This document shows positions 1,802 to 22,150 of a stretch of 64,000 nucleotides of DNA, piece after piece (position 1 is the stretch's first letter; every line of letters begins with the position of its first letter). The notes beneath the pieces were generated by a model. It ran no database searches. It was not told the DNA's origin and was given only the letters and a program-made list of their open reading frames with translations. The translations under genes were made by a program, and so were the position numbers. The stretch comes from an uncultured Candidatus Poseidoniales archaeon (GTDB taxonomy: Archaea > Thermoplasmatota > Poseidoniia > Poseidoniales > Poseidoniaceae): contig CAJIYT010000001.1 of NCBI GenBank assembly GCA_905181715.1, forward strand, positions 71-64,070, read 5' to 3'.

Positions 1802-3484
1802 TCAGGATTTTGACCTTTTCCACTCACCAACAGTCATTCCTTCAGCATTAGCCTGCTTGCGTTCTTGTGCTGCTTCCCACGCTGAAACCCCTTGTAATTC
1901 ACTTAGGTAATCGAGATGTCCAGGTCTGGTAACCACCATCACATCGTCTGCGGTAAATTGCGAGGGCGAGGTATAGCCACAGGATTTGGTCAAGGTCATC
2001 ACCTCATGCTGTAATGCTTGGGCGTACATCGCAACTCGCTCGCTTGCGCCTTCGACATCTAGGGCGCGTTGACGCTTTGCATCTTGGGTTGCGATTCCGG
2101 TTGGACAATGGTTAGAATGGCAATCCAGGGCTTGGATACAGCCGAGTGCAAGTAGGAAACCCCGGGCGATATAGACTGCATCAGCACCTAACGACATCGC
2201 CACAACCACATCGATTGGTGTTGCCATTTGTCCGGCGGATAATAATGCAACTCTATCTCTAACTCCATATTCCTTCAAGGCAATATCTACCACTGCAATC
2301 GCTTGTTTCATCGGCAAACCAGCGTGACTTGCTAACACCAATGGTGCTGCACCAGTGCCACCTTCAGAACCGTCGACAGCGATATAATCAGGTCCACGCC
2401 CCGGTTCAGCAGCCATTTTTTCTGCGATCATTTCAATTTCATCGGTATGGCCGACGACCAATTTAATCCCGACCGGTTTGTCACAAATCTTCCGCACCCG
2501 GTCTAAGAAATCAAACAACTCATCAACATTTGAAATTTCGACATGGCGTCGTGGCGACAATAAATCTTGCCCCATCGGGACATTACGTATCGCTGCGATT
2601 TCAGCAGTGATTTTTTCTTTGAGTAACATACCGCCTTTTCCTGGCTTTGCGCCCTGGGCTAGTTTTACTTCTATCATTTTCACATCGGAGTGAGCTGCGA
2701 GTTTTTTCATTAGGTCATCATCCAACGATGAATCATCTTTGCGCACACCGAATTTAGCAGTTCCCATTTGAAAGATTGCTCCTCCTCCTTTCTGATGGTA
2801 AGGCGAGTATCCACCCTCCCCGGTATTGTGGAGAATTCCTGCTTTCTTCGCTCCAATATTTAGGGCTGAAATCGCTCTTGCCGAGAGTGAACCAAAAGAC
2901 ATTGCAGATATGTTCACGAAGTGGTTCATAACCACCGGATTTGTAATCCCCGTATGCTTGCCAATTACCAATTGGTAATCTCCTTCTTCGTTGGTATTCT
3001 TGCCGCTGGCCGACCGATCGGTAAAGGTTGATGGTAATACGTGATATGAGCCCACAGCATCGAAATCGATTTGGCTTCCAAAGCCGATATTGTTGGATTT
3101 ACCAGCTGCGGTTTTGTAAACCCAATTTCTAGTTACGCGATTAAACGGCTTTTCGTCGAGGTCGGCCATAAACCAGTATTGGCGGAATAAGGGCCCCACT
3201 CCGACTGCCATTTTCCGGCCCCAATAGAGCACAGGAAAGGTTCTTTGAATCGGGTTATCCACTTGGGTGATGTCGTTTAAGAAGAGTACTGCGATACCAC
3301 AGCCGATGGCGATTGGCATTATTACTGGAATGCTAAGGGCGGTTTCGATTCCAAATTGTGAAGCGAATAGAGGTAGACCATACCAAGAGGTTATGGCAGT
3401 GCTTGCTAACCAAGCAGCCCACCAAGCCCAGCGCTTTGAATTCGACTTTGCCATGGCTAGGCTATCACTGACCTTGCATTTCAA
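1802..3484 (-). CDS. FMN-binding glutamate synthase-related protein (GltB domain-2 family) with hydrophobic N-terminus
   Basis: Motifs ISAMSFGSLSARAISALNIGAKKAGILHNTGEGG, KLAQGAKPGKGGML and VDGSEGGTGAAP. N-terminal TM-like segments. The start codon overlaps the upstream TrmH stop by 4 nt. Confidence 0.85.
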   Translation of the reverse strand: MKCKVSDSLAMAKSNSKRWAWWAAWLASTAITSWYGLPLFASQFGIETALSIPVIMPIAIGCGIAVLFLNDITQVDNPIQRTFPVLYWGRKMAVGVGPLFRQYWFMADLDEKPFNRVTRNWVYKTAAGKSNNIGFGSQIDFDAVGSYHVLPSTFTDRSASGKNTNEEGDYQLVIGKHTGITNPVVMNHFVNISAMSFGSLSARAISALNIGAKKAGILHNTGEGGYSPYHQKGGGAIFQMGTAKFGVRKDDSSLDDDLMKKLAAHSDVKMIEVKLAQGAKPGKGGMLLKEKITAEIAAIRNVPMGQDLLSPRRHVEISNVDELFDFLDRVRKICDKPVGIKLVVGHTDEIEMIAEKMAAEPGRGPDYIAVDGSEGGTGAAPLVLASHAGLPMKQAIAVVDIALKEYGVRDRVALLSAGQMATPIDVVVAMSLGADAVYIARGFLLALGCIQALDCHSNHCPTGIATQDAKRQRALDVEGASERVAMYAQALQHEVMTLTKSCGYTSPSQFTADDVMVVTRPGHLDYLSELQGVSAWEAAQERKQANAEGMTVGEWKRSKS

Positions 3485-4251
3485 TCATCGCATGATTGTT
3501 GACGCAGAGATTCCAATGCCACTGCCGAAAGAGCGACTTGAAGATTGTACGATGGCACGAACCCCTTCATCGGTAATCTTACCACTTCATCAGCAGCCTC
3601 GAGCATCTCTGTTGAGACTCCATGACGTTCTGCTCCCACAACCATTACCAAATCGCCGGTCAAATCGACATCCCAAGGTGCGACTTTACCACAATCCTCG
3701 ATTACTACGATTTTCAACTCATGTTTTTTGAAGACTGCAAGTGCTTCTTCAGCCGAAGCCCATATCACGGGGATGAAGCGATCAGCGCGCATACTAGCGC
3801 GGGTGGCTGTGCGTCGTAGATCATTGGTTTGGGGTGTGGTAATCACAACCGCATTGGCTCCACTAACTTCAGCGGTGCGCACACAAAACCCGATATTGGT
3901 TGCATATTCGACTTGGTCAAGCAACCAGATGGTTCCTCCACCTGAGCACACCTGATCCAGAGTGGCATTTGGATTCCGACCTATTAAGGCCATAATTTCA
4001 TGTTCACCATCAGCTGACATGCGCCACAAATCGGTAGATGAGCCTATTTCGAAGGGGATTTTTTTTTCCAGACAAAGTGCCTTCACCTCTTCGTCAATCG
4101 CATCGCGATCCATCAATATCAAAGTTGCTTCACCGCTAGCAAGCGCAGCGATTACTTCATCACGCCCTCGCACCTGCACGGAACAACCAACGAGTGCTCC
4201 TTCATGAAGACGCCACCCGAATGGAGCAAAGGTCCGCGAGGACAGACTCAT
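3481..4251 (-). CDS. SpoU/TrmH-family RNA 2'-O-methyltransferase
   Basis: SpoU motifs NIGFCVRTAEVSGANAVV, MVVGAERHGVS and LPMKGFVPSYNLQVALSAVALE. The track start 4299 would overlap rpl15e, so the internal ATG at 4251 (MSLSSRT...) is preferred. Confidence 0.8.
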   Translation of the reverse strand: MSLSSRTFAPFGWRLHEGALVGCSVQVRGRDEVIAALASGEATLILMDRDAIDEEVKALCLEKKIPFEIGSSTDLWRMSADGEHEIMALIGRNPNATLDQVCSGGGTIWLLDQVEYATNIGFCVRTAEVSGANAVVITTPQTNDLRRTATRASMRADRFIPVIWASAEEALAVFKKHELKIVVIEDCGKVAPWDVDLTGDLVMVVGAERHGVSTEMLEAADEVVRLPMKGFVPSYNLQVALSAVALESLRQQSCDD

Positions 4252-4297
4252 AAAGGGATGGCAAGTCGCCGTGATGCTTAAGAAGCAGGTGAACATC

Positions 4298-4888
4298 ATG
4301 GTCCAAGGTCTCTACCAACACGTTCGTAAGACTTGGAACCGCCCAAAGGCTACCCAAGACCACATGGACCGCATGAAGCGTATGTCCCAATGGCGCCGTG
4401 AACCTGTTAACTGCAGAATCGAGCGGCCAACCCGTATCGACGCTGCTCGTAGACTTGGTTACAAGGCTAAGCAAGGCATCGTTATGATCAGAACTCGCGT
4501 CCGCCGTGGTGGTCTCCGTAAGGGTAAGATTCACAAGAAGCGTAAGCCATCTAAGGCTGGTATCAACAAGATTACCATGGCCAAAAATACTCAGCGCATG
4601 GCTGAAGAACGTGTGAACCGTCATTTCCCTAATCTAGAAGTTCTCAATTCTTATTGGGTCGGTCAAGATGGTAAGCACAAGTTCTACGAGATTATAATGC
4701 TCGATCCTCATCACCCAGCAATCAAGTCGGATAAGAATCTCGGCTGGATCGCTGAAACTCAGCATCGGGGTCGCGCCTATCGTGGTAAGACCAGTGCTGG
4801 CAAGCGTGGTCGTGGACTACACAACAAAGGTAAGGGTGCAGAAAAGTTGCGTCCTTCCCTCAAGGCCCGTGGCAATATCGGCAAGTGA
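4298..4888 (+). CDS. rpl15e: 50S ribosomal protein L15e
   Basis: MVQGLYQHVRKTWNRPK...RVRRGGLRKGK...YRGKTSAGKRGRGLHNKGKG. This r-protein is specific to archaea and eukaryotes. Track start 4271 trimmed to the conserved N-terminus. Confidence 0.9.
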   Translation: MVQGLYQHVRKTWNRPKATQDHMDRMKRMSQWRREPVNCRIERPTRIDAARRLGYKAKQGIVMIRTRVRRGGLRKGKIHKKRKPSKAGINKITMAKNTQRMAEERVNRHFPNLEVLNSYWVGQDGKHKFYEIIMLDPHHPAIKSDKNLGWIAETQHRGRAYRGKTSAGKRGRGLHNKGKGAEKLRPSLKARGNIGK

Positions 4889-4894
4889 TTTTTT
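4889..4894 (+). terminator. oligo-T tract immediately after the rpl15e stop
   Basis: TGA (4886-4888) is followed by TTTTTT. Archaeal terminators are typically T-tracts. Confidence 0.3.
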
Positions 4895-5024
4895 CACCGC
4901 CGGCCTCGACTTAATTGCTATAATGGCAGTCGGCAACGTGCCTGTAAGACCTGAGGATTTCCAGTCTTAAGCCGCTGGTCTGATAGGGTGGCACCTTGTC
5001 ACTCATCTCAGTGGGAGTGAGACG

Positions 5025-5285
5025 ATGAGCGACGAAGGCATGAGTCTGACCGCTTTCACCGGGCTAGAGGTATTCCTTCCCAATGGCCGTCGTCTTGGCC
5101 GGGTTCACGATGCAGTCATCGATGCAGGTGAGATGAGTTGCTCACATCTATTCATTCGTGAAACCGATAAGGAATTGGTAGAAGGCGGTGTTCATCTAGC
5201 GGTTCCTTGGCGCTGGGTAAGGGCAATCGACGATATCGTTCTGTTGCGTTGGTTCCCAGAAACTCCAATCCCTCTGGGCAATTGA
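5025..5285 (+). CDS. PRC-barrel domain protein
   Basis: 86 aa. LEVFLPNGRRLGRVHDAVIDAGEM...HLAVPWRWVRAIDDIVLL resembles archaeal PRC-barrel proteins. GGGAGTGA Shine-Dalgarno-like element lies before the ATG. Confidence 0.6.
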   Translation: MSDEGMSLTAFTGLEVFLPNGRRLGRVHDAVIDAGEMSCSHLFIRETDKELVEGGVHLAVPWRWVRAIDDIVLLRWFPETPIPLGN

Positions 5286-5294
5286 GGAATCGAT

Positions 5295-6362
5295 ATGGCA
5301 TTGGAATTACACGTACTTGGCACTTCTTCGGCTAGGCCAGCCCATGGGCGTGAAGTCTCCGGTTCTTTCTTGGTCACACCAGAAGGCAATCTTGCAATAG
5401 ATTGTGGTGAGGGCTTTCAATCGCGTCTGGCCGCTCAACGTGCGGCATTGAAAGGAGAGAAGAAAAAACTCAAAATTTCAAGATTAGGAGCAATATTACT
5501 CAGCCATGGCCATCTTGATCACACGTGGGGAGTACTTCCTTGGCTCAAGTCGATGTCACTAGATGGTAGAACCAAGCCACTGATGATAATCGGTCCTACA
5601 TCCTCTGCAAATATCGCTGCTCTCCTCTCTAGCCAAGTGCCAGAGAAAGATCCTGATATTGATCTGGTTCATCAGTATTCGATATGGAGAAGTCTTGGCG
5701 CCACAAGCAAAGATCTCGGCTATGAGGTCGATTGGATTCTTGGTGATGGTCAGAGATGGTATTCGCTCGATAATGGTTTACTCGATGAACTGCCCCAACC
5801 ACTGGCGAAGGTAACCATCAGTGCTCATAAAACCAGACATAGCGTTCCATCTTTTGCTTGGCGCGTGGCTACTGCTGACCGGCCAGGTGTTTTTGACCGT
5901 AAGAAAGCAGAAAAACTACCCGAACAAATTCGTATGAAGTTATCACAAGGCGAGAATGTAGAATTCGCGGGAGAAGAACTCCTTTCATCTGATTTCAGAG
6001 GGGATGTAAGGCCGGGTATTTCTTTGATTGTCAGCGGTGATACCGCCGAATGTTCAATTGATGCTCAATGTGATTTACTATTCCATGAGGCAACATATCA
6101 TGACGTCCATCAGGAATGGGCTGAGAAGTTTTTGCATTGTACCGCATCTGGTGCAGCTCGAACAGCGGTGAAATGTAGCGCCTCTTATCTTGCTATCACC
6201 CATTACTCGGCGCGTATCGAAGATCACGAAACCTCGCTCTTAGAAGCGAGATCAGTCCATGGCAATGTTATGGCTTGCAATGACGGAGACCGCCTTGAAC
6301 TTACCCCCGAAGGTTTGCTCAATCATCATGTGCGAAACGAGTTAGGCTGGTCTGTCAATTAA
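5295..6362 (+). CDS. rnz: ribonuclease Z-like MBL-fold hydrolase
   Basis: N-terminus LHVLGTSSARPAHGREVSGSFL...IDCGEGFQ and the HxHxDH motif LLSHGHLDHTWG. GAGGA lies 8 nt before the ATG. Confidence 0.75.
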   Translation: MALELHVLGTSSARPAHGREVSGSFLVTPEGNLAIDCGEGFQSRLAAQRAALKGEKKKLKISRLGAILLSHGHLDHTWGVLPWLKSMSLDGRTKPLMIIGPTSSANIAALLSSQVPEKDPDIDLVHQYSIWRSLGATSKDLGYEVDWILGDGQRWYSLDNGLLDELPQPLAKVTISAHKTRHSVPSFAWRVATADRPGVFDRKKAEKLPEQIRMKLSQGENVEFAGEELLSSDFRGDVRPGISLIVSGDTAECSIDAQCDLLFHEATYHDVHQEWAEKFLHCTASGAARTAVKCSASYLAITHYSARIEDHETSLLEARSVHGNVMACNDGDRLELTPEGLLNHHVRNELGWSVN

Positions 6363-6399
6363 GGGCGAGTTTGAAGTGTCTTGTTGCATTGAGTCTACC

Positions 6400-8790
6400 A
6401 TGCGAGGGCGAGCCGTCATCACAGTCTTACTGGGTTTGCTGTTTGTGATGCCGGTTGTATCGGCTGCCAATGGACGGGCTGAGCCCGGCTGTACAGAGAT
6501 GGATATTTCGACGATTTCTTCACAGGAATTAATCAGTAGCGATTTGTGTATCAAATTGGATTTAGGTATCCATTCATCAGGAGCGGTATTAGAGTTTGAC
6601 ATCATCGTGTCAGAAGGCGATTTAGATTTACTACTCTTCGATGAGAATGGCGTCCAAGCCTATGATTTAGGTAACTCATATCGCGACTATTTCATCGATG
6701 ATGCAAGTTTCGAGGGCGCTTTTGGCGAGTACGAGTTTGACTGGCAAGTACCTGTTTCAAGCCAGGCTAAGAATTGGTATATCGTGCTTGATAATCACAA
6801 TCATGATGGTGATGGTGGTCAGGGCGGTCAAGGTTTGATCGATGCTAGAGTGGCCTTTGCCATGGATGTCGCAAATGAATGGCAATGGACTCCTTATCAC
6901 GATGTGGTAAAAGTGAATCCCGGAATACGTGAGACCCTGTTGGGAGAGGGAACATTAATCCTCGATGCTGAGACCGGATTGGACATAAAAGTCGAGCCTA
7001 TCAGTGGTTCAGCCAATGTCTATATCCAAACCGTTGAGCAGAGCAGTGGTGGGCTTTACATCTCTGGAACTCTGATGGAAGAAGTCGATTCTACCAATTC
7101 ATTATCATGGACAGTTCCTGCTAACTTCAATGGGAAATCATTGGTCCTTCAATGCGATAATAGCGCTGGTTCTGAAGAGTTCAGAGCCACTATAACCGTC
7201 AAGGCTTCACCGCCGTTGAATGCTGTAGTAACCGATGATATTGATGAGATGGTGACCATTGATGAGACCTTTACTTTGGACGCAACCTCTTCACCAAATT
7301 TACTGAATCAGATTTCGATTATTCGCTGGGATATGGATGGTGATGGTTCATATGAAGTAGAAGGATGGACAGTTCAACATTCATATAATGAACCCGGAAC
7401 TTACAATGTATCGGTCGAATTAATATCGGCAGTTCAATCTACATCTTATGGTACTCATGTGGTAAAGGTTTCAGATGTAATCGATCCGATTGCCAGAATT
7501 ACTGGGACCGGCACCCAACTACTCGATGGCCGCTGGAAAGTCGAGCCAAATTCAGACATCTATTTTTCATCTGTCACTTCCAGCGATGATGATGAAATCG
7601 CAACTCGCGCTTGGTCTTTGGATGGCACTTCCTACGGCGGAGATGAATCTGTTACTATACAGTGGGCAGAACCTGGCAATCATAATCTAATACTGACCAT
7701 AACCGACAGTTCTGGTAATGCCGGTTCTGATAATGTGACAATATTCGTCGATGATGAGACCAAACCAGTAATCGATGAGCAATCGATAGAATCACTGAAG
7801 TCGGGGTTGGTAGGTGATGCAGTGACTTTTAGTGCATCAGCAATAGATGTCTTCGACGACTCTTCACAACTGGTTTACACTTGGGACGTCTTTCCAACTG
7901 TCGATGCAGATGGCGATGGAGATAAGAGAAATGATGCTGATTTAACTGGTAGAACCGTGAAGTATTCTTTTACTGAAACCGGTCGTCATGATGTGGTCTT
8001 AACAGTAAGTGATCCTTCTGGTAATAGTGATAGTTATTCATTCGAAGTGGTTATTGCTGCTCAGCCAGAATCGAGTTCGGGTTTTGCAATATTTATTGTA
8101 GTTCTATTCATTGCTGCAATAACCGGCGGTTTAGGAGTTATCGGAAATCGTATGATGCAACGCAAACATGCAGTGACTCTTCTTGTTGAGAGAGGCTTTT
8201 CTATTGGCGAGGCAGAAGCAAGAGTCGAAGCAGTCGCTCGCTCCAAGAGTTTGCCAATGCTGGCTAATGCCATGCAATTAGCGGGAATTGGAGAGGGTCA
8301 AGCTATGACAGAAGAACAAATCGCCCTTGCTGCAAAGGCAACTGAAATGGCGGCGATTTATGGTGCAGGGGGGAGCACGATGCAAACAAGTGACCCCAAT
8401 GCAGGATTCAGGCCAGCAATCCAACAGAATTCACAGAGCGCATCGATGATGGCCGGTGAGGCTTTAGCGGGATTGATGGATGAAGAACCCAAGAAGGTCT
8501 CTCAGCAAACAAATCAAGGAATAAACTCAGAAGATGATTTCATCGATCATCTACGAAGTGCACCAGCACCAACTCCGAAATCAGAAACAAATTCATCTGT
8601 TAAAATGAATGTTAGAAGTGGAGGAATATCTCTCCCGAGTTCGAAAAAATCTCCTGTCGAGAAGCCAAGCGGTATCAAAGGATCTTGTAGTGCGTGTTCT
8701 AAGGGTTTCATGATAGATTTACCATCTGGAGTGACTGAAGCATTAGTCGATTGTCCACATTGTGGTGTCGAGGTATTGTTCACACGTTGA
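6400..8790 (+). CDS. secreted PKD-repeat surface protein with a single TM and a cytoplasmic tail ending in a Cys4 zinc ribbon
   Basis: Signal-like MRGRAVITVLLGLLFVMPVVSAANG. PPC-like GDLDLLLFDENG module. Three PKD-like repeats (WDMDGDGSYE..YNEPGTYNVSVEL; WSLDGTSYGG..EPGNHNLILTITDSSGN; WDVFPTVDADGDGD..ETGRHDVVLTVSDPSGN). TM GFAIFIVVLFIAAITGGLGVIG (8078-8145). C-terminal CSAC-x18-CPHC (8686-8763). Track start 6376 is GTG; ATG 6400 is used here. Confidence 0.8.
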   Translation: MRGRAVITVLLGLLFVMPVVSAANGRAEPGCTEMDISTISSQELISSDLCIKLDLGIHSSGAVLEFDIIVSEGDLDLLLFDENGVQAYDLGNSYRDYFIDDASFEGAFGEYEFDWQVPVSSQAKNWYIVLDNHNHDGDGGQGGQGLIDARVAFAMDVANEWQWTPYHDVVKVNPGIRETLLGEGTLILDAETGLDIKVEPISGSANVYIQTVEQSSGGLYISGTLMEEVDSTNSLSWTVPANFNGKSLVLQCDNSAGSEEFRATITVKASPPLNAVVTDDIDEMVTIDETFTLDATSSPNLLNQISIIRWDMDGDGSYEVEGWTVQHSYNEPGTYNVSVELISAVQSTSYGTHVVKVSDVIDPIARITGTGTQLLDGRWKVEPNSDIYFSSVTSSDDDEIATRAWSLDGTSYGGDESVTIQWAEPGNHNLILTITDSSGNAGSDNVTIFVDDETKPVIDEQSIESLKSGLVGDAVTFSASAIDVFDDSSQLVYTWDVFPTVDADGDGDKRNDADLTGRTVKYSFTETGRHDVVLTVSDPSGNSDSYSFEVVIAAQPESSSGFAIFIVVLFIAAITGGLGVIGNRMMQRKHAVTLLVERGFSIGEAEARVEAVARSKSLPMLANAMQLAGIGEGQAMTEEQIALAAKATEMAAIYGAGGSTMQTSDPNAGFRPAIQQNSQSASMMAGEALAGLMDEEPKKVSQQTNQGINSEDDFIDHLRSAPAPTPKSETNSSVKMNVRSGGISLPSSKKSPVEKPSGIKGSCSACSKGFMIDLPSGVTEALVDCPHCGVEVLFTR

Positions 8791-8850
8791 TGCAGTGATA
8801 ATATAATCAATACAGGGATGGGTTCTTGAGTATCAGTGCCGCGAAGCGGC

Positions 8851-11800
8851 ATGATGACAAAGCCAGTAATCCGACTTCTCCATGCCGGCCTGCCTCAGGC
8901 TGTCAAGGGTCAAAGGATGGCTTTGATCATTTTTATGATAATGATTACCCCGGTATTTCAGCCGGTTGGAGCAGACCTCTCAGTAGCTAAAGATGACTTT
9001 GGTATACTCGATGCAATGACCGCTGCACTCGCAAAAAGAAGCGATTCTGGTGAGGACAAATTGGCACAAACTAGTGCCGAGGCAGTGTTGAGTGCAGTTA
9101 CTGCCAAAGGGCGGGTTGTGGCAGATGGAGACGCAATTCTTGCAACTGAAGGTGTGATTGGTAGTATGAGTATGCGGGATACAACCCCTTCTCCAGTCGA
9201 CCACCCGCGGCCATACGAAATGCTGACCAATACCTCAACTCACCCACCTGGTTGGCCGAATAACTTACTCGATACTTTGTTTAGTCCACCTGAGGATTTT
9301 AGTGATCCTTTGGCATTTGGCATCAACTCCTACGCGCTTTATGTAAATTATACCGCACGTGATAATGGTCCACAATATGAAAATTGGACTTATGGTACCT
9401 TTACTGGCGAGATTCTCACCTTCACCGAGTTCTCTCCTTTCATGAATAGAATCGATCTAGATGGCGATGGCGCCGACGACGTTGAAGTTGGCCTCACAGT
9501 TCTCGGGTTAGGTCAATTCGGCGAAGGCTGGGGTTTTGAGCTGAATGGCCTATTACTTGAAAAAATTTGGATAAAACCAACTTTCCAATGGCGTATCGAT
9601 GTACTGAATCCAGAGCAAGCGATGTGGGACGATTTGGGGTCTATGGAAGTCAGTTTGATGAAGGGATTTGCCTATGATCTTTCTTTGACCGAAGTTGGAG
9701 AATCTTATGCGATGGTTCTAGATTCTAGATTCACCCAACCTCCAAATGAATTCGAAGTAAGAGTCGGACTAGACTTGATTGAATTTGGTGTTACCGAAAC
9801 GGTAGAATTGACTATCGGCCAATTATTATCCCTTGCAACATCAGCAGTGGGTATTGGTCAGGGAGTGAACGAATCATCCCTCGAAATACTAAGCGTATCG
9901 GCGCCTTATTCGATTTACATCTCTAACCCTGATTTGGATTCCACAAATACACAGTCGAGATGCGAGGACACTACTGGGTATTATGATCCCGAAATACATC
10001 ATTTGGCGGAATCACGATCTCATCGATGTGCGTTTGGGATAGGTATTGGTTACGTCCATTTTGCTCCCTTGGATGAACAGGTAGATGAGAGAGATATTTT
10101 TGAGATGGGCTATCTCGATATTGGACTCCATCCTGTCGCAGGACAAAATCAATTACCCAATGAAATTGATTTTATTTTACGTAGCGATGGTGAGAATATA
10201 GCCGGAGTAAACTCCTATGATACTATCGAAATCTATAGTGATAAGGATATTGATTTATGGTTCCACTACTTTGAAGATAGGTCTAATTACATTGTGGGAG
10301 GCGAGAAACATGGTAATCTCACAGATTCTCGAGGATGGATTAGAGGTCTACCTGGAGGTGAACTTCACCAAGATGAAATCACTGCTATTTTTACTATGAT
10401 TGGTAATGCACCTACGGATGATAATTTCCCTGGCCAGTTTCCAACTCGACTTTCATTGATAATAGCCATCAAGAACTTTACAGCTGATGATACTCAAAAC
10501 GCTGATGATGATACTTTACCGGTAAACCCGTCAGATACCCGGTGGAATAGTTTGATTTTAATCGCTGGAACTGAACGTATCACCAGTCTTACTTACGAAT
10601 CAGTATTCCAAAGACATGGCTATTCAAGTGATCGTTCTGCAATAAAGGTTGAATTCATCGATATTCCGGAGGTGCTGGTAATCTTTGGAACTTTTGAGAT
10701 ACCCAGTACTACTAGATCACGTGTTGAATTTGGTAATGCTCCGGATCTGTTCAGTCAATTCTTTGATAATATCATCCTAAACCTGGTCGAGATTATTCTC
10801 GATGTTGGGACCATAATCAACGGATTACCCGAAGCCTTAGTCGGAACAGCAGGTAGTTCAGGCGGTGAGATAATCGTTCAGTGCTATAATCAGGTTAAGC
10901 AAACACTGCCCTCTGGTAGCACTAGAATAGAAGTGGAAATTGAAATGATTAATGCAGCGATAGCGAGTTCAGACCAACCGGTGATGCTTACCTCAGATCA
11001 TATTATCTTAGCAGAAAATTTAGATTTGCCACTGGTCCAAGGGAGATATGGGGCTGCAACTCCATTGGTTCCAATTTCTATGAGTATTCGGATGGGTAAT
11101 GTTTCAGGATTCCACTATTCATATGATCAGATAAATGATATTCGGCAAATAGGTCTAACCGGAACCGCAGGTAGTGCACTTGTGATTGGCCATCTTATCC
11201 ACAACACTGGGACCACTGATGGTTTACTCAAGCAATTCGCTTCCATTTCAAACCGTCCGGGTACTCTAAATATCACTCAGAGTGGAGTAATAATTGATTA
11301 TTCATCTAGTAGTTCGATTGATTCAATCACATATAGTGGTGAAGGAGGGGGGCAACAGAACTCCTTACGACTAATCGGCCTTTCCACCGATTTCAGCATA
11401 GAATTAGGCGATATATTGGGCTTTGTATCGAAGGATCCAATCACCGCTATTGAAATACAAATCTCGAATGCAACAACTCCATTGACGATGAATGGCGATC
11501 ACATTCGTTATTGGGTCGACGAGGCTGAGTCTGAGGCTAGTCTAAGTGTTAGAATTTCAGATGTGACAAGGGTCAATCAATTCCCTCCCACTGAACCAGG
11601 TGCAGATGGCCCATTAGGGAATAGCCGTATTGAAATCGAGCGTAGTAATTCACGGCCTCTTTCGATATTAATCGACGATGTCACAATCCGCGAAGATAAA
11701 TTCCGAGGCCTATCTGGGCGTGGATATATTGACCCATTACCAGCAAACATCAGCTTCTCTGTGCCAAGTTCAGGTAAAACAGACCTGTTGAAAGTGCCAG

Positions 11801-13521
11801 ATTTCGGCGAGGATAGTGGGGTGTTAGCGCTTTCGTTTTTCCTTGGCGAAATGATTAGTTTTGGTGGTTCAATAAATGATTTCGCTCATAATATAATGGT
11901 AGACCTTGGTGATATATCTGGCGAGAATAACAATATGACACTGGGATTAGATCTAGTGACAGATGAGGAATTCAATCTAACTTTAGATATGCGAAAAGGA
12001 CGGAATGTACAAACTTCTCCGAAATGGGTTCATGGTCTATCGGGTGAGTTCTATGAAGCAACTGAATTGGAATTCAACCTCAGCCGTATGCCAGCATTTA
12101 CTGAAACCTCTCGTGGTGTTTGGGCTGAAGCCATTTCCGACGGCATCGTAAATGATAGTGAATACGATGATGCAGTAAACGCTCTAACTTGGGGAGGTGT
12201 CAATCAATCGAGACGTTTGGTAAATTTATTGAGCGATGGCTATATTTCCGATAGTGAAATACAGGATCTCGATTTAGATTTACTTTTGACAAATGGTGTA
12301 AATCTAAGCAACCGCCGGGCATGGTGGGCACGTATGTGGATGCCGAATCTTCCAGCGGGAAATATTGTATTGGGTTATGAATTGACTTTTGTTGAGAATG
12401 TTCCAACGTTTGAAATAGATATCGAAATGGATAATTACATGCCTGCTCGACCGATTATCAGCGTATTGATGAATGGTTTGAAACGGTCTGATGTCTCGAT
12501 AATAATCGAAGGACTGAACACTGAATTATCGCGTGATATGTCAGTCAATGCGTTTTATTCTACTGAATCAGACCGAGTAATTCCTCGCTTTTCGATAGAT
12601 TTAAATTATGATATAGGAGAAACTCTTTCGGTAGTCGAGGCTCATCAAATCAATCATTTACGTGGTATTAGATCTGATATTATGATGTTCGGAGCTCCTC
12701 GTTCAGCAACACTTTCAGCGACGATTGGCGATGTATTAATTGCTGATTTATTCGTACCAATTGAATATAGAACAAATAGTAATTCGGCTGAATCGATTTA
12801 TTTGCAACAATTGCGGTTTATAGAAAACCGATGGTGGCCATCAACATTATTCATGCGCGATATTCCAAGCGAAATGCATTTGGCAGCCCTACCTTCATCC
12901 GAATTCAATATCAATCGAGAAAGTACCTTCCAAGGTATGTATACTTTAGATTACACTTCCAATAGTGATCAGATGGATCTATTCCTCGAGACCAAGGGTA
13001 AGGCTCAGAACGTTCAAGGAGGTAATTTGATGATCGCAGAGAACCTTCCTGATCGTTTCGTGATGGAAACCACTGATGATTGGGGTGCACGCATTTCGGC
13101 ATCTGGTAATGGGGTTGAAAGAATTTATCTTAAGCGTACTAATTCGCCAATGCAACCAGGATATTCGATGAATTCTGCTCAGATAATCGGTGAAGATCTG
13201 AAGAGTGTAACTATTCATATACATCGCTATGCTGGTGTCCCTGTAGTAATATTGGATGATATTACCAGCGGTAGAATCGTGGTTACCAGTGATATTAGTG
13301 CCGATATAATGGGCTTTGAAATAGATGGTCGAGGCGTTCTCCTCGATGCACAATTCACGGGTGTAATTCCCACCGCTTCGAGTTTGGGCATCAATGGTGT
13401 GGTTACCGATCTTTCGTTGATTGGCGAATTGACCGGTGGTTCGGTTGAGACTACACACATCATGGTGGGAGAACCGGTTTCAACCCTGATATCTACGATT
13501 ATTGCGACGGTGGTGGGTTAA
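8851..13521 (+). CDS. giant (about 1,556 aa) secreted protein of unknown function
   Basis: A single open frame of 4.67 kb. Signal-like MALIIFMIMITPVFQPVGA. One calcium-type loop RIDLDGDGADDVEVG. The C-terminus ends in an uncharged hydrophobic stretch, VSTLISTIIATVVG. I recognised no catalytic motif. Track start 8836 is GTG; ATGATG lies at 8851. Confidence 0.75.
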   Translation: MMTKPVIRLLHAGLPQAVKGQRMALIIFMIMITPVFQPVGADLSVAKDDFGILDAMTAALAKRSDSGEDKLAQTSAEAVLSAVTAKGRVVADGDAILATEGVIGSMSMRDTTPSPVDHPRPYEMLTNTSTHPPGWPNNLLDTLFSPPEDFSDPLAFGINSYALYVNYTARDNGPQYENWTYGTFTGEILTFTEFSPFMNRIDLDGDGADDVEVGLTVLGLGQFGEGWGFELNGLLLEKIWIKPTFQWRIDVLNPEQAMWDDLGSMEVSLMKGFAYDLSLTEVGESYAMVLDSRFTQPPNEFEVRVGLDLIEFGVTETVELTIGQLLSLATSAVGIGQGVNESSLEILSVSAPYSIYISNPDLDSTNTQSRCEDTTGYYDPEIHHLAESRSHRCAFGIGIGYVHFAPLDEQVDERDIFEMGYLDIGLHPVAGQNQLPNEIDFILRSDGENIAGVNSYDTIEIYSDKDIDLWFHYFEDRSNYIVGGEKHGNLTDSRGWIRGLPGGELHQDEITAIFTMIGNAPTDDNFPGQFPTRLSLIIAIKNFTADDTQNADDDTLPVNPSDTRWNSLILIAGTERITSLTYESVFQRHGYSSDRSAIKVEFIDIPEVLVIFGTFEIPSTTRSRVEFGNAPDLFSQFFDNIILNLVEIILDVGTIINGLPEALVGTAGSSGGEIIVQCYNQVKQTLPSGSTRIEVEIEMINAAIASSDQPVMLTSDHIILAENLDLPLVQGRYGAATPLVPISMSIRMGNVSGFHYSYDQINDIRQIGLTGTAGSALVIGHLIHNTGTTDGLLKQFASISNRPGTLNITQSGVIIDYSSSSSIDSITYSGEGGGQQNSLRLIGLSTDFSIELGDILGFVSKDPITAIEIQISNATTPLTMNGDHIRYWVDEAESEASLSVRISDVTRVNQFPPTEPGADGPLGNSRIEIERSNSRPLSILIDDVTIREDKFRGLSGRGYIDPLPANISFSVPSSGKTDLLKVPDFGEDSGVLALSFFLGEMISFGGSINDFAHNIMVDLGDISGENNNMTLGLDLVTDEEFNLTLDMRKGRNVQTSPKWVHGLSGEFYEATELEFNLSRMPAFTETSRGVWAEAISDGIVNDSEYDDAVNALTWGGVNQSRRLVNLLSDGYISDSEIQDLDLDLLLTNGVNLSNRRAWWARMWMPNLPAGNIVLGYELTFVENVPTFEIDIEMDNYMPARPIISVLMNGLKRSDVSIIIEGLNTELSRDMSVNAFYSTESDRVIPRFSIDLNYDIGETLSVVEAHQINHLRGIRSDIMMFGAPRSATLSATIGDVLIADLFVPIEYRTNSNSAESIYLQQLRFIENRWWPSTLFMRDIPSEMHLAALPSSEFNINRESTFQGMYTLDYTSNSDQMDLFLETKGKAQNVQGGNLMIAENLPDRFVMETTDDWGARISASGNGVERIYLKRTNSPMQPGYSMNSAQIIGEDLKSVTIHIHRYAGVPVVILDDITSGRIVVTSDISADIMGFEIDGRGVLLDAQFTGVIPTASSLGINGVVTDLSLIGELTGGSVETTHIMVGEPVSTLISTIIATVVG

Positions 13522-14045
13522 TGCAAATCCCTCACGATGAACAGATTGCTGTCGAACAAGCAGCTAAGAAATATAGTGAATATGTTCAAGATATAGCTGA
13601 AAGAGTTCATCCGTTACGAGTTGCCCTTTCTGGCTTATTATTACTGGTTCTACTTGGTGGTATTGTCAGTACTTGGTACTGGGTTATTCCACGTGATGAT
13701 GTAAGTGTCGAAACCCTGTATTTGCAGCGCTCAGGGCATGTGGTTCTCAGTGAGGTTCACAATGATGGCAGTAGGACGATTACAGATGTTTCTATAATGG
13801 TGCAATTCATAGATCCTCAAGGGGAGATGGTTGATATGTTTTCCGTTTCGATAGGGAATATCTCAAGCCATTCAAGTGTATCAGGAAACGATATGCAATT
13901 GGTGATGATGGGTGTTTCAATCTGGGATAACCATACAGTTCGAATCGACCTTGATTGGACAGATCATTCGGGCCGGGCGCATTCGAAAACCTGGGTTCAC
14001 CCAGTAGGCGAGTGGGTAGTCGAGAAGTTTGTCGACGAGCCCTAA
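13521..14045 (+). CDS. single-pass membrane protein with a small beta-rich ectodomain
   Basis: The ATG overlaps the giant gene's stop (TAATG, 13519-13523) and is preceded by GGTGGTGGG. TM ALSGLLLLVLLGGIVSTWYWVI. The ectodomain pattern VLSEVHNDGSRTITDVSIMVQFIDPQGEMV looks like a small Ig-like/DUF3426-type sandwich (weak call). Confidence 0.65.
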   Translation: MQIPHDEQIAVEQAAKKYSEYVQDIAERVHPLRVALSGLLLLVLLGGIVSTWYWVIPRDDVSVETLYLQRSGHVVLSEVHNDGSRTITDVSIMVQFIDPQGEMVDMFSVSIGNISSHSSVSGNDMQLVMMGVSIWDNHTVRIDLDWTDHSGRAHSKTWVHPVGEWVVEKFVDEP

Positions 14046-14052
14046 GGGCTCG
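14036..14052 (+). terminator. perfect 7-bp hairpin whose loop is the stop codon of the 174-aa gene
   Basis: CGAGCCC-TAA-GGGCTCG read directly in the sequence, followed by GATTTGT. Confidence 0.3.
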
Positions 14053-14099
14053 GATTTGTAATACTACAGCGGACAAGCCCTAAAGCGGATGTGTAATAG
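14039..14099 (+). repeat. imperfect direct repeat, two copies, in the 62-nt spacer before the protease gene
   Basis: GCCCTAAGGGCTCGGATTTGTAATAC (14039-14064) versus GCCCTAAAGCGGATGTGTAATAG (14077-14099). Each copy contains a TATA-like TGTAATA. Confidence 0.45.
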
Positions 14100-14107
14100 C
14101 GCATGTT

Positions 14108-17100
14108 GTGCGAACAGCCTCACTTCTGCTCACTGTTTTGCTATTGAGCATTTTTTCCTCACTTATTACCCCAGCAAATGAGCCAGAAATTGCTGAAGAT
14201 GATACTCAATGGCAGCGTATTGAATTGAGTGCAGATACGATGAAGGGTTTGGTAGGGACGCTCGAACTCTCACTTACCGGCGAAGAAAGAGCCATTCTTG
14301 CAGATTCAAGATTAGGAATCTATGACCAAGGTGGCTTACTACTAAAACGAGATATCCCTGAAGAGTTATTAATTCCGCGTAGCGATTTATCGTTACTATT
14401 AATCTCAGATCAAGTCCATATGGCGACTGCTAGAACAGCTCTTTCAGAAGTCCAAGGCCTTGTGGTACGAGAATATATCTCGCCATCGGGATTGTTGGTT
14501 CAAGGAACAAATAACGCATTAAAACAAGCAAAATCCACAATCGGAGTCGTCGCAGGTCTACCCGTACCTGTGGCAATGGTAGTCGACGAATCTCTATGGA
14601 CTCATCCTAGCCAACTGCTAAGACTTGAGTCATGGCGAGATGAAGGATTGTTACCAGGTGTGAAATTGGAAGATGAACACGGTAGCACTCTCCATCAGGA
14701 CCTTCATTTGGTTGCAACAGCACATTTGGAGGAGTTAGTTATGGTTGATGATGGACGCTATCGCGGTCTATTCACCGGCGATTTGAACCAATTAAGCACA
14801 CTTGCATCGGAAATCTCTACCGCATGGGTAAGGGCAGAACCGCAATTTTCTATCGACAATAATAAAGCACGCTCCCATATGAAAATTACCGGCTCTGATG
14901 GCATAGATGATCATTTTGCGACCGAACTTGACGGTTCAGGGCAAATAGTGGCAGTTGCTGATTCAGGGTTGGATGAAGATCATGGAGACTTTGGGACTAG
15001 AGTCGTAGGTAATGTCGATGTGATAGGCGATGGATCGAGTGCTGATTTACACAGCGGTCATGGCACCCACGTTGCTTGTACAGTATTGGGGGATGGAACT
15101 AGGGGCACTTACTCAGGAGTCGCCCCGGCAGCCGAATTGTATTTGCAGGCTATGGAAAACGATAACACTGGCAATTTCCAATCTCCTTCATTGAATAATC
15201 TGTTTAATACCGCGTATAATGCTGGTGCGCGTATCCATACAAACTCATGGGGTTCGTCACAGGCTAGTAGTCAAGGGAAATATACTTCAGAATCTGAAGA
15301 TGTGGATGACCGTGCTAATTATTATGATCGCTATTATAATGGCGTCGAAGGCCTGACCATTCTTTTTGCCTCAGGCAATGATGGCCCAGGAGTAGGTACG
15401 GCGAGTTCTCCTGCAACGGCTAAGAATAGTGTAACTGTCGGTAGTCACCTAAATCGCGGCGGCGGTTCTCCAGATACGATTTCGCAGTCTTCAAGCCGAG
15501 GCCCCACCGATGATAACCGCATCAAGCCTGACGTCATTGCTCCTGGGGCTTATGTCCGCTCATGCCTTTCACAAGATGCGACTGATACGTCAGGTGGTAC
15601 AGTCCAAACTGGTGGCTGGTACATCGAGTACTCAGGTACTTCGATGGCTACTCCCAATGCGGCAGGTTCGGCAGCATTGATCCGAGAATATATCTTAGAA
15701 ATTGCACAGAGACCTGCGCCTCAAGGAGCCTTGGTCAAGGCATTACTCGTGCTAGGGGCAAGGGACCTTGGAAATCGTGATATTCCTAATAATGACGAAG
15801 GCTGGGGGCGAATCGATCTACAGAATACTCTTGCGCCATCCGATAGAGGCATTTGGGTTGACGATCGCTCGGTACTTTCAGGAACTGGTAATGTCAAGAC
15901 ATATACCTTCAACGTCACTACTTCTGGTCAGCCGTTCAAAGCCGTTCTTTGTTGGTCGGATGAACGCGGTTCAAGATTCTCAACCAATCAATTAGTGAAT
16001 GATCTGAATTTGGAGATAGAGACTCCCAGCGGTACGCTTTATCGAGGCAACCAGTTTAGTCAAGGGCGTTCAATCGAAGGAGGTACTTTTGATAGCACTA
16101 ACAATCTTGAAGTCGTATTAATCGATTCAGCAGAAAGTGGAATTTGGACAATACGTGCTAAAGATGGCGGGCATAGCGGGCAGAAATCGCAACCATTCGC
16201 TCTTGCGGTTTCAGGAGCTGGAGTAAATGATCTGCGCCCAGATCCCATGGTATTACCAAATTTACAGGTAGGTGTTGCAATTCCTCAGATAGGCGAAGAT
16301 GTCACATTAACGATGGCAATACAGAATTTCGGTAATATTGAAGCTGAGGATGTAGAAGTAGAATTCCTCGTTGAAAACCAGAGTCAAGCGAGTGTAGAAT
16401 ATGATCTTGGCCCAGGTGGCTTACGAAACATTGCATGGAATTGGCAACCGGTAAACTCTGGTGGCAACACTCTTTCGTTTATCGTTGATCCAGATGGGTT
16501 AATCGAAGAAATCTCAGAATCTAATAATCGTCTAGACTGGGTAGTCAACGTCACCACCCCGGGGGTTAAATTAGAATCTCCAGCTCCTATTTTCACTCTT
16601 AGTGATGAGGGAAAAACCACTACTTCTTGGAACGTAACTCTGACCAATACTGCATTATTGGCTACCAATGCCTCGGTTACTGTAACGTCGGTAACTAGGA
16701 TAACAGACGGAGTCTTGATGCCTTGGTACGTTAGTATCGGCGAGGGGAGCTATTCTCTTAGCGGTAGCGGACATGTTGATTTATCTGCGACAATGGTCCA
16801 TCCTGAGCTTCCCACCCCTGGAGTCTATATTGTCAGTATTCTTGGTACAGATGATGATAATTCCATACAATATCCATATGATTTACAGTTCGTAGTACCG
16901 ATACTAGGCGCTGTTCGATTCGAATCTGCTTATACTACAATACCGATAGATCCGCGCACTGGGAGCTCAATTGATTTCATATTCCATAATGATGGGAATG
17001 GTGATGTGGGATATGATCTCTTTTTGCTATCACCCGTGGGCTGGAGTTCTGGGTTTGACGACCTCTCCTCGGAAGGAGGTGCCAGTTCAGGTTCTACTGG

Positions 17101-18637
17101 TTTGATACTTGAAAACTCTATGCGGCAATTATCTATCACCTTCACTCCACCATTGGTGATGTTGAAAGCAGGAGCAGAATATAGTGCTACATTTAGAGCT
17201 ATTACGCAAACTGAAAACCCACAAACATTTGATTTCGAAATCCCTTTGGTGGTTATGGAAATCAAACAAATCGATATTTACATGAGCACTACGATCGGAG
17301 AAATAACCCCCGGGACAGGTTTCAGTCTTCTATTCAGTTTTGAGAATAATGGCAATCTAAATCATAACATAACCCCAACACTTACGCTTCCTTCCGGTTG
17401 GACCCAAATCAGTCAACTAATAACATTCGATTTATATTGGACGCAAAGCCATGAAATTCTCATCAATATCTACGCCGGTGATACGGCTAGATCTGGTCAG
17501 ATAGCATTATTCCTAACTAGTGGTCAAGATTCATGGTCATGGGTTCAAGAGGTTACGATTGAAAAATTGGCTGTTATTGATGTTCAATTCGCTAGATTAG
17601 AAATTGGCGATGAACGTTGGGATTCGGTAATGGGGCCTGGTTCACATCCGACATCAGAGCGAATGACTTTCACTTGGATAATCACAAATGATGCTGACAA
17701 TATCTGGTCGCCAGAAATAGATTTAACCATGGACGACGATCTTATTGGCGAATGCGAACCGATGGATGATGTAAGCAATAGCGACGAAGTTTTGCTCGTT
17801 TGTACAATGATTATTGATAGTGATGCCACCCCAGGCACTGAACCCAAATTTACTGTTTCGATGAGTGATGGTTCGTCTAATCATCAATTCAACATTACTC
17901 TATTCGTGGCATTTGAACGCAGTGTGGAATGGGATGTAGTCGGGCCAAGTCAATTCAATGTCGGCGAATCGACATCTATCGATGTAAGAATAGTCAATAC
18001 GGGTAATACTAGATTGACGCATACTTTACAGTTTGCGGGCCCGAAAGGCTGGCAGATAAGTAGCGATAATGCCGATTTCATCTTCGACCTCGAAGCAGGC
18101 CAATCAGATTCTATTGAATTGTCGGTTCTCGCTTCACAAGCCGGAGAAGGAGAACTCTTGCTATGGTTGAGTAACGCAGACGATGTCGAAGCATCTTCGC
18201 ACTCCCTCCCTATTGCTTCGATGGGGGTGATAAATGATGATTCTTCTTCCGAAAGCGAAACCTCTAACATAATCGGGGTAATTGGTTTACTAGTCATCGC
18301 ATTTTTGGTTGGTTTGGTAATTATACAATTACGCTCTAAGTTCTCCAGTAAAGACCAATCGCAACAACAATATTCCCAAATGTCACTGAATTCCTCCATT
18401 GATGGCCCAGTAAAACCAGCCAATAATGCCCAAGGGCAGCAACTGAAAGAATACCAAGAACAAGCCGAAAAATATGCTCAATATCAAGTTGAACTTGCAG
18501 AATATGAACAGAAGATGCAACAATACGAGGGGCCGGATAATCAAAGTGCCGAAGGCACCGAAGAAACCGCTGAAAACAACGAATCAGGCGCTGATTACGG
18601 GACAGATGAACCTTTGATAGATTCGGATGATTCTTGA
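14108..18637 (+). CDS. membrane-anchored subtilisin-like serine protease (S8) with P-domain-like, CARDB and multiple Ig-like modules
   Basis: Catalytic motifs VAVADSGLD (Asp), HGTHVACTV (His), NSWG (oxyanion Asn) and GTSMATPNAAG (Ser). CARDB-like GEDVTLTMAIQNFGNIEAEDVEVEF...ISESNNRLDWVVNV. TM IIGVIGLLVIAFLVGLVIIQL (about 18270-18332). Q/E-rich acidic cytoplasmic tail of about 100 aa. GTG start as in the track, with a signal-like N-terminus LLLTVLLLSIFSSLITPA. Confidence 0.85.
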   Translation: MRTASLLLTVLLLSIFSSLITPANEPEIAEDDTQWQRIELSADTMKGLVGTLELSLTGEERAILADSRLGIYDQGGLLLKRDIPEELLIPRSDLSLLLISDQVHMATARTALSEVQGLVVREYISPSGLLVQGTNNALKQAKSTIGVVAGLPVPVAMVVDESLWTHPSQLLRLESWRDEGLLPGVKLEDEHGSTLHQDLHLVATAHLEELVMVDDGRYRGLFTGDLNQLSTLASEISTAWVRAEPQFSIDNNKARSHMKITGSDGIDDHFATELDGSGQIVAVADSGLDEDHGDFGTRVVGNVDVIGDGSSADLHSGHGTHVACTVLGDGTRGTYSGVAPAAELYLQAMENDNTGNFQSPSLNNLFNTAYNAGARIHTNSWGSSQASSQGKYTSESEDVDDRANYYDRYYNGVEGLTILFASGNDGPGVGTASSPATAKNSVTVGSHLNRGGGSPDTISQSSSRGPTDDNRIKPDVIAPGAYVRSCLSQDATDTSGGTVQTGGWYIEYSGTSMATPNAAGSAALIREYILEIAQRPAPQGALVKALLVLGARDLGNRDIPNNDEGWGRIDLQNTLAPSDRGIWVDDRSVLSGTGNVKTYTFNVTTSGQPFKAVLCWSDERGSRFSTNQLVNDLNLEIETPSGTLYRGNQFSQGRSIEGGTFDSTNNLEVVLIDSAESGIWTIRAKDGGHSGQKSQPFALAVSGAGVNDLRPDPMVLPNLQVGVAIPQIGEDVTLTMAIQNFGNIEAEDVEVEFLVENQSQASVEYDLGPGGLRNIAWNWQPVNSGGNTLSFIVDPDGLIEEISESNNRLDWVVNVTTPGVKLESPAPIFTLSDEGKTTTSWNVTLTNTALLATNASVTVTSVTRITDGVLMPWYVSIGEGSYSLSGSGHVDLSATMVHPELPTPGVYIVSILGTDDDNSIQYPYDLQFVVPILGAVRFESAYTTIPIDPRTGSSIDFIFHNDGNGDVGYDLFLLSPVGWSSGFDDLSSEGGASSGSTGLILENSMRQLSITFTPPLVMLKAGAEYSATFRAITQTENPQTFDFEIPLVVMEIKQIDIYMSTTIGEITPGTGFSLLFSFENNGNLNHNITPTLTLPSGWTQISQLITFDLYWTQSHEILINIYAGDTARSGQIALFLTSGQDSWSWVQEVTIEKLAVIDVQFARLEIGDERWDSVMGPGSHPTSERMTFTWIITNDADNIWSPEIDLTMDDDLIGECEPMDDVSNSDEVLLVCTMIIDSDATPGTEPKFTVSMSDGSSNHQFNITLFVAFERSVEWDVVGPSQFNVGESTSIDVRIVNTGNTRLTHTLQFAGPKGWQISSDNADFIFDLEAGQSDSIELSVLASQAGEGELLLWLSNADDVEASSHSLPIASMGVINDDSSSESETSNIIGVIGLLVIAFLVGLVIIQLRSKFSSKDQSQQQYSQMSLNSSIDGPVKPANNAQGQQLKEYQEQAEKYAQYQVELAEYEQKMQQYEGPDNQSAEGTEETAENNESGADYGTDEPLIDSDDS

Positions 18638-18682
18638 CAAATAGTGGACAGACTCTTTAGGTACCGATGCGAGGCACATTAC

Positions 18683-21550: not shown

Positions 21551-21552
21551 AT

Positions 21553-21568
21553 GACCCCTAAAGGGGTC
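21553..21568 (+). terminator. palindrome GACCCCT-AA-AGGGGTC 3 nt after the stop of the 955-aa surface-protein gene
   Basis: Read directly. It shares the CCCTAA(A)GGG core with the hairpin at 14036-14052. Confidence 0.3.
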
Positions 21569-21637
21569 CACCACTCAAGGACTTACTTCACCTCTTATCT
21601 GCGACAACGCTTATGGGCGGCTGATGGCTGGATGCGA

Positions 21638-21657
21638 ATAGAGCGTGTTCGCTCTAT
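21638..21657 (+). promoter_or_regulatory. 8-bp stem / 4-nt loop hairpin just upstream of the nuoA ribosome-binding site
   Basis: ATAGAGCG-TGTT-CGCTCTAT. It ends 3 nt before GGTGA (21660-21664). Confidence 0.3.
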
Positions 21658-21669
21658 CTGGTGAGTCTG

Positions 21670-22144: not shown

Positions 22145-22150
22145 CTATAA

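Follow-up and report, generated by a model that had tools for sequence, protein, structure and literature searches.

In the SlaA/SlaB system of the Sulfolobales, a secreted, β-rich outer protein of ~1,400 amino acids (aa) is encoded next to a smaller, co-transcribed, membrane-anchored partner that keeps it attached to the cell, and both are glycoproteins. Here, we describe a gene pair of related layout in a window of 64,000 nucleotides (nt) from an uncultured Candidatus Poseidoniales archaeon of the Poseidoniaceae (assembly GCA_905181715.1, contig CAJIYT010000001.1, positions 71 to 64,070), in which a gene for a giant protein overlaps that of a small membrane protein, hereafter called the partner. 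The pair is a member of no known family and is closest in kind to two-component surface systems such as SlaA/SlaB, with which it has in common a giant β-rich outer protein encoded next to a smaller membrane-anchored one. In contrast with SlaB, of about 400–475 residues and with a C-terminal transmembrane (TM) segment, the partner has 150–230 residues and an N-terminal TM segment. Further differences are the giant's own C-terminal tail, its ordinary expression proxies, the lack of sequence or fold similarity between the systems and the different phylum. Marine Group II (MGII) archaea, with MGIIa corresponding to the Poseidoniaceae and MGIIb to the second family of the Poseidoniales, count among the most abundant surface-ocean microbes. 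To our knowledge, they have never been cultured, and we know of no information on their cell envelope.

We propose that the two genes form an ancient unit common to the phylum Thermoplasmatota. Our tentatively preferred reading is that the giant is a surface protein that carries glycans and is tethered by the partner co-translated with it, and that it serves as a structural or scaffolding component of the cell surface. The main features of the pair, all on the forward strand, are as follows.

8851–13521, forward: giant gene, 1,556 aa, single copy in the genome, with homologues of 1,545–1,593 aa
8851–8973 (residues 1–41), forward: probable Sec signal peptide, with a basic n-region, the h-region ALIIFMIMITPVF and the site PVGA-D
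9346–12081 (N166 to S1078), forward: five invariant N-x-S/T sequons, at N166, N489, N542, N873 and N1076
9448–9492 (residues 200–214), forward: DxDGDGxDD calcium-type loop, RIDLDGDGADDVEVG
10618–13518 (residues 590–1556), forward: C-terminal two thirds of the giant, its most recognisable part outside the Poseidoniales, which holds two long β-meander blocks
13456–13518 (residues 1536–1556), forward: C-terminal tail, H-h-h-x-P-x-P followed by a [ST]-rich small-xxx-small stripe and a final Gly
13509–13523, forward: junction, with the Shine-Dalgarno (SD)-like GGTGGTGGG at 13509–13517, a TAA stop and an ATG overlapping it by one base, reading GGT TAA TG
13521–14045, forward: small partner gene, 174 aa, with a predicted cytoplasmic N-terminus, TM segment 34–56 and CARDB-like ectodomain

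The two open reading frames (ORFs) lie where an earlier note, drawn from the DNA letters alone, had placed them, and the TAA (13519–13521) and the ATG (13521–13523) do share one base as it described. An alternative GTG start at 8836 would give a giant of 1,561 aa.

The same note had called the giant an orphan, a label that has to be dropped. The search of a large protein collection returned at least 129 homologue clusters with 43–87% identity, nearly all of 1,545–1,593 aa, which were all labelled hypothetical and came from metagenome-assembled genomes (MAGs) of Poseidoniaceae or Poseidoniales. Scanning one genome per species yielded 209 relatives. The gene is present, in single copy, in 200 of the 201 sampled Poseidoniales genomes, including all 61 high-quality ones, and the MGIIb homologues are 33–36% identical to the giant of the window. 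We also found a match in 120 of 301 sampled Thermoplasmatota genomes. Outside the Poseidoniales, matches are mainly to residues ~1180–1556 and lie inside ORFs of 1,240–1,850 aa; once aligned, these distant genes proved similar over most of their length. Full-length relatives occur in MGIIb and, with lengths of 1,280–1,850 aa, in MGIII and in other Thermoplasmatota families, and many small-genome families of the phylum do not have the pair. The homologues place the organism in MGIIa, and the giant family is as old as a large part of the Thermoplasmatota. An assembly chimera, considered in the earlier note, can be excluded since the giant is colinear from end to end with homologues of near-equal length in ~200 genomes. 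Cluster look-ups gave 'hypothetical protein' labels only, and a word-indexed search using a profile of distant homologues gave seven matches, none with an informative name. Within its own gene cluster, the giant is the best conserved protein (64% identity vs 40–52% for its neighbours; L001).

The partner is just as constant a companion. It is encoded directly 3′ of the giant in the 79/79 MGIIa loci that extend far enough. A member of its family also directly follows the giant in the 12/12 distant loci that we fetched; these members are single-pass proteins, of 148–192 aa in most loci. The pair is kept even where its other neighbours are unrelated, namely in MGIII and in eight further Thermoplasmatota loci. 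It thus passes the co-occurrence check proposed for it, as it recurs in MGIIa, MGIIb, MGIII and other Thermoplasmatota.

The junction between the two genes is equally tight. The start codon closest to the end of the giant gene lies at −4 to +10 nt from its stop in 78 of the 79 MGIIa loci and is an ATG in all but a few of them, the commonest arrangements being an ATGA overlap (−4; 19 loci) and a 4-nt gap (31 loci). An SD-like GGTGA is found 3–16 nt upstream of the small-gene start in 74/79 MGIIa loci and usually spans the terminal Gly codon of the giant and its TGA stop (...GGG TGA...). This GGTGA forms the core of GGAGGTGA, the archaeal anti-16S pairing sequence. Distant loci have overlaps of 1–7 nt or gaps of 1–48 nt, with the 48-nt gap in one locus. 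This recurrent junction, with the SD sequence embedded in the last codons of the giant, strongly supports the coupled co-production that had been suspected from the window.

In some loci the small gene lies in the frame of the giant, with a single TGA and 3–9 nt between them (L038, L039, L043, L044, L046, L049, L050, L065, L066 and L068); the same arrangement with a single TGA is found in L100 (genome G003), at 1555–7017. Stop read-through at these loci would yield a fused protein; the window and most loci differ. Since this layout is not the general rule, we do not propose read-through. Likewise, the long 'open frames' of some genomes that looked like natural giant-partner fusions turned out to be two same-frame genes split by one TGA. 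At the other end of the small gene, a perfect hairpin, GAGCCC-TAA-GGGCTC (14037–14051, forward), has the gene's stop codon as its loop and is followed by ATTTGT; it is possibly the end of the transcription unit, a terminator or a processing site.

The partner has one TM segment and a β-rich ectodomain, as first described. Its family is characterized by the TM helix, a [VIA][IL]-P-R-[TDAV]-[ED] motif at the outer membrane boundary, a T-V-Y-H motif and an N-x-G-[ST] β-sandwich signature. P57, R58, N81 and G83 are invariant or nearly so in 19 diverse members, the most conserved part being the end of the TM segment together with the juxtamembrane P-R motif. These four residues mark the boundary of the membrane and the core of the sandwich, and the N-x-G-[ST] motif is likewise invariant. 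In MGIIa, the outer end of the TM segment also carries G/A-x3-S/T. The ectodomain most likely has a CARDB-like immunoglobulin (Ig) fold, because several members match CARDB, DUF2393, DUF7490 or FxLYD below threshold. Specifically, CARDB matches 3/19 members (best E value 2e-4), DUF2393 matches 5/19, DUF7490 matches several, and the FxLYD_dom score for the partner is 17.4 bits, below the cut-off of 23. Small membrane-anchored Ig-like proteins of the CARDB, FxLYD and DUF2393 types similarly combine an N-terminal TM segment, one β-sandwich and N-x-G-[ST]. They differ from the partner family, which alone has the juxtamembrane P-R motif and an obligate association with a giant; the matches remain below curated cut-offs.

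At its N-terminus the giant has a basic stretch and then a hydrophobic segment (residues 22–43), in agreement with the signal-like start noted at first sight, and the PVxA-D consensus at its cleavage-type site is kept within the family. The signal peptide is therefore a candidate for cleavage. The single DxDGDGxDD calcium-type loop was also correctly spotted. Its residues D202, D204, D206 and D210 are invariant in the MGIIa alignments A1 and/or A2, and the consensus of the distant Thermoplasmatota proteins keeps the loop (EIDVDGD...), with an invariant Asp and Arg. These proteins have the conserved Asp/Gly ligand pattern of DxDxDG calcium-type loops. The phylum-wide invariant residues are Pro, Gly, Trp and the Asp and Arg of the calcium loop, which points to a structural rather than a catalytic pattern of conservation. 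Each of the five sequons is kept in 64/64 MGIIa sequences, and phylum-wide N542 is kept in 13 and N873 in 12 of 17 sequences. This conservation of the sequons fits an extracellular N-glycoprotein.

The C-terminal end of the giant, VSTLISTIIATVVG, is uncharged and is followed by no basic residues, whereas the neighbouring 968-aa protein ends in a TM segment plus RRKS. The description of a hydrophobic end devoid of basic residues therefore stands, and the stretch is too short for an ordinary membrane span. Only 11–14 residues follow the PxP motif, so the tail cannot cross the membrane alone. Within this stretch, Ser, Thr, Ala or Gly occupy every fourth position and there is usually a Gly at the end. 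In 17 phylum-wide sequences the middle position of PxP is usually Glu or Asp, sometimes Ala or Leu, and the motif reads G-E-P in the giant of the window; H1536 and P1542 are invariant in MGIIa. We read the tail as a short amphipathic helix that would be suited to tight helix-helix packing.

Two AlphaFold2 predictions of the giant, each based on a 64-sequence alignment, gave a predicted local distance difference test score (pLDDT) of 72.7 and a predicted TM-score (pTM) of 0.70 for residues 1–1200, and a pLDDT of 78 and a pTM of 0.76 for residues 1001–1556. The elements in these models are the following.

Residues 22–35: N-terminal helix
Residues 51–144: helical region
After residue 144: about 85 β strands in up-and-down order
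Residues 634–667: long hydrophobic helix breaking the strand series
Residues 999–1020: long helix breaking the strand series
Residues 1085–1147: helical insert

The pTM values are high for so long and multi-domain a chain, which suggests that the modelled giant is one rigid body rather than beads on a string. No relatives of described function could be assigned to it. In Pfam and NCBIfam scans, neither the giant, for which the earlier note could name no family, nor the partner has a match above cut-off, and the same holds for six distant homologues of the giant. Sequence searches of the PDB with the single giant protein and with two profiles gave nothing below an E value of 0.08. Foldseek searches of the PDB with both models, a check that had been recommended, ranked SusC, LptD, TonB-dependent transporters, SprA, teneurin, TamA, ApoB100 and LPD-3; however, with TM-scores of 0.04–0.15 and root-mean-square deviations (rmsd) of 20–40 Å, none of these matches is real, and the top 50 of either model contain no solved counterpart. 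Comparison of one model with viral structures similarly returned spurious long-meander matches (TM-score ≤0.15). Within the family alignment, hhalign comparisons of 150-residue windows detected one weak pair of internal repeats (493–548 vs 1160–1215, probability 53%); repeats inside the giant are too degenerate to define. The pair belongs to no described family, and the predicted fold of the giant has no solved counterpart.

We looked for proxies of the expression level of the giant. A codon-usage index was built from 21 ribosomal protein genes of the window's genome, with percentiles calculated among 1,195 ORFs. The top ranks are held by L15e, EF-1alpha, EF-2, aIF-1A, TBP and an RNA polymerase subunit. 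On this scale the giant falls in the 19th, the partner in the 16th and the subtilase encoded downstream of them in the 14th percentile. For transcripts, we used the gene-level table of the MGIIb MAG SIMO Bin 19-2 (PMC9723583, supplementary file 4), in which the genes of interest have coverage in only two of the seven samples used here. This MAG has a syntenic block of nuoC-B-A, a gene for an 895-aa protein, the subtilase gene, the 192-aa gene 396, the 1,456-aa gene 397 and a PKD protein gene (PMC9723583). Normalized transcript coverage (PMC9723583) is as follows.

Giant (gene 397): 0.13 in sample 1, 0.10 in sample 2
Ribosomal protein L15e: 1.24 in sample 1, 0.33 in sample 2
Ribosomal protein S27e: 1.73 in sample 1, 0.40 in sample 2
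Ribosomal protein L44e: 6.79 in sample 1, 2.07 in sample 2
NuoB: 0.26 in sample 1, 0.06 in sample 2
Tyr-tRNA synthetase: 0.22 in sample 1, 0.29 in sample 2

The codon bias of one genome and two samples of one orthologue thus indicate ordinary expression of the giant.

In our preferred reading, that of a glycosylated surface protein held by its partner, the giant would be exported by the Sec pathway, and its signal peptide would probably be removed. It would fold outside the cell into a continuous, rigid and almost all-β body, with a few long helices packed on the sheets, which would be stabilized by the calcium-type loop and would carry N-glycans at the five invariant sites. The body would be followed by a tail of ~20 residues, made of an H-x3-P-x-P hinge and then a short amphipathic helix with a Ser/Thr/Ala/Gly stripe. 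A ribosome finishing the tail would reinitiate on the small gene, with the help of the SD sequence, at the overlapping start or a few bases later. The small protein would insert with its N-terminus inside and present its CARDB-like β-sandwich on the membrane surface. The giant's tail would pack on the outer end of the partner's TM helix and on the juxtamembrane P-R region, thereby holding the giant on the cell at a 1:1 stoichiometry. The complex would be made at ordinary levels and be neither a bulk S-layer lattice nor an enzyme. The roles first envisaged for the small protein, namely receptor, anchor or chaperone, are all plausible. Several points weigh against this reading. We infer the contact between giant and partner from their sequences, and inspection by eye of 17 sequences revealed no covariation of the acidic residue of PxP with the partner Arg. 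The tail is modelled as a short helix with low AlphaFold2 confidence, and the expression proxies are indirect. The giant could instead be released, self-anchored or processed.

Other readings of the pair have to be weighed against this one. By analogy with SlaA/SlaB, the giant might be the main S-layer protein, i.e. the outer canopy, of the Poseidoniales and related Thermoplasmatota, with the small protein as its membrane stalk. The pair does have such a layout, the gene for a large outer protein lying next to that of a membrane-anchored partner and, as judged from the coupling signals, being co-expressed with it. The giant is universal, single-copy, large, β-rich and acidic, is predicted to be secreted and has a calcium loop and conserved sequons; the small-genome families lacking the pair could be wall-less lineages, and we know of no other obvious S-layer gene in the Poseidoniales. 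Nevertheless, the ordinary expression proxies argue against a main S-layer protein and lead us to regard it as rather improbable: neither the 19th percentile in codon usage nor the coverage of the MGIIb orthologue, 10–50x below ribosomal protein genes and near housekeeping enzymes, would rank the giant with the most strongly expressed genes. Rapid divergence is usual for S-layer proteins, whereas no other protein of the cluster is as well conserved as the giant. Homology gives no support either, with no Pfam, NCBIfam or PDB sequence match and neither SlaA nor any solved S-layer protein in the top 50 Foldseek PDB matches of either model, and the neighbouring 968-aa Ig-repeat protein with its C-terminal TM segment is more like a conventional euryarchaeal S-layer protein. 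Moderate expression suits a machine better than a wall, and one could picture the giant as an envelope-spanning β-groove or barrel, a conduit for hydrophobic molecules, peptides or envelope building blocks, with the small protein as its plug or dock, as in LptD-LptE, TamB-TamA or bridge-like lipid-transfer proteins. Such systems similarly combine a very long antiparallel β-meander with a small dedicated partner. The fold predicted for the giant, with high pTM, is a very long up-and-down antiparallel meander in which the long hydrophobic helix 634–667 is modelled within the sheets, and its weak Foldseek matches (LptD, TamA, SusC, TonB-dependent transporters, SprA, ApoB100 and LPD-3) are all of such types. 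However, the TM-scores and rmsd values given above amount to no real structural match, Pfam and NCBIfam detect no AsmA, TamB or LptD family, and the pair is archaeal, with a giant predicted to be secreted and glycosylated. Moreover, the N-terminal hydrophobic segment resembles a cleavable signal peptide rather than an anchor, and we know of no second membrane in these archaea. We consider a conduit quite improbable.

The two remaining readings concern how the giant is matured or attached. The small protein might be an assembly or maturation factor, i.e. a holdase, a folding platform or a glycosylation helper, the giant being released or otherwise attached. Strict coupling and co-occurrence suit a chaperone as well as an anchor, and only one small Ig-like domain is available for contact. 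This reading has a low probability in our view, as the coupled junction fits equal rather than catalytic amounts, the conserved tail of the giant needs a binding site, and the partner is most conserved at the membrane surface. The tail itself is reminiscent of PEP-CTERM sorting signals, in which a secreted protein likewise ends with P-x-P (often PEP), Ser/Thr residues and a short hydrophobic stretch, and an enzyme might cut it and replace it with a lipid or another covalent anchor. Of the tripartite signal only the motif is present; the tail is short, with neither a full TM helix nor a basic cluster after the hydrophobic stretch, and it is found on only one protein per genome, which would make the giant a single substrate. 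Furthermore, the exosortase/archaeosortase family PF09721 was detected above cut-off in 0/61 Poseidoniales genomes, while the control, M. jannaschii, was positive. We rejected sorting by an archaeosortase on account of the lack of the enzyme in these genomes; the hydrophobic stretch of 11–14 residues and the missing Arg/Lys cluster also differ from such signals, and we deem enzymatic replacement of the tail highly improbable.

A bolder version of the tethered surface protein, which we hold to be unlikely, is that the pair is the core of an unrecognized, phylum-wide envelope structure of the Thermoplasmatota. It would combine a rigid all-β body of a new fold with a new mode of anchoring, through a short C-terminal helix on a co-translated single-pass partner, and might serve as an envelope-spanning conduit or spacer. 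If this is true, the most abundant planktonic Euryarchaeota of the ocean build their envelope in ways unseen in cultured archaea. The pair takes up ~0.3% of a 2-Mb MGII genome and is also found in MGIII and many sediment Thermoplasmatota. Its identity would bear on how MGII cells meet particles, viruses and grazers. It would add a new large β architecture, and possibly a new tethering mode for surface proteins, and the conserved stop-codon/SD junction represents a clean natural case for archaeal termination-reinitiation coupling.

The pair lies within a conserved gene cluster (window positions 5295–22744) encoding, in order:

MBL-fold protein
PKD protein
giant
small protein
1,509-aa membrane-tethered subtilase
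968-aa choice-of-anchor-T Ig-repeat protein
NuoA
NuoB

This gene order is constant in all 80 MGIIa loci, as far as the contigs reach, and in two MGIIb loci; outside the Poseidoniales only the giant-small pair persists from the cluster.

Upstream of the giant gene we identified a conserved leader or upstream element.

8815–8825, forward: GGGATGGGTTC, ~25–45 nt before the giant's start codon

Of the 63 MGIIa loci inspected, nearly all have a variant of it at this position, GGGATGGKTTC or, in other genera, GGCGAATGCTTCTCAAAGGAGG. The conserved element spans ~11–25 nt and contains a conserved ATG, which in the window opens a 3-codon mini-ORF (ATG GGT TCT TGA) in frame with the giant. Since the window holds a single exact copy and the whole genome four, the element does not define a regulon.

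Lastly, an exhaustive profile search with residues 590–1556 of the giant found 435 proteins, of which ~60–70 cluster representatives are full-length members of the giant family or fragments. The remainder include high-GC proteins of 1,000–3,300 aa that match the giant profile in 5–15 separate stretches.

High-GC repeat relatives: P0195 (3,329 aa), P0199 (1,876 aa), P0200, P0205, P0241 and P0262; L103, 3884–9514

These proteins are built on a tandem β-hairpin module, [DN][LI]P..[LIV].[LIV]...Y.AS..[IV], shared with the meander blocks in the middle and C-terminal parts of the giant (E values 1e-23 to 1e-63); unlike the giant, they show a clear tandem repeat, and their ends are different. Four of them that we scanned belong to no Pfam or NCBIfam family, and in the one genetic context examined no small partner follows the gene. 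They represent an undescribed family, which is probably bacterial. Because the high-GC relatives carry the matching tandem module, a widespread and undescribed extracellular β-hairpin module seems to be the origin of the giant's meander blocks. Some of these high-GC proteins also have a Cys-rich C-terminal domain. Elsewhere in the genome of the window, a MoxR-type AAA ATPase with an N-terminal (PAAPM)n repeat (contig C43, 32368–33489) has one of the most ribosomal-like codon usages.

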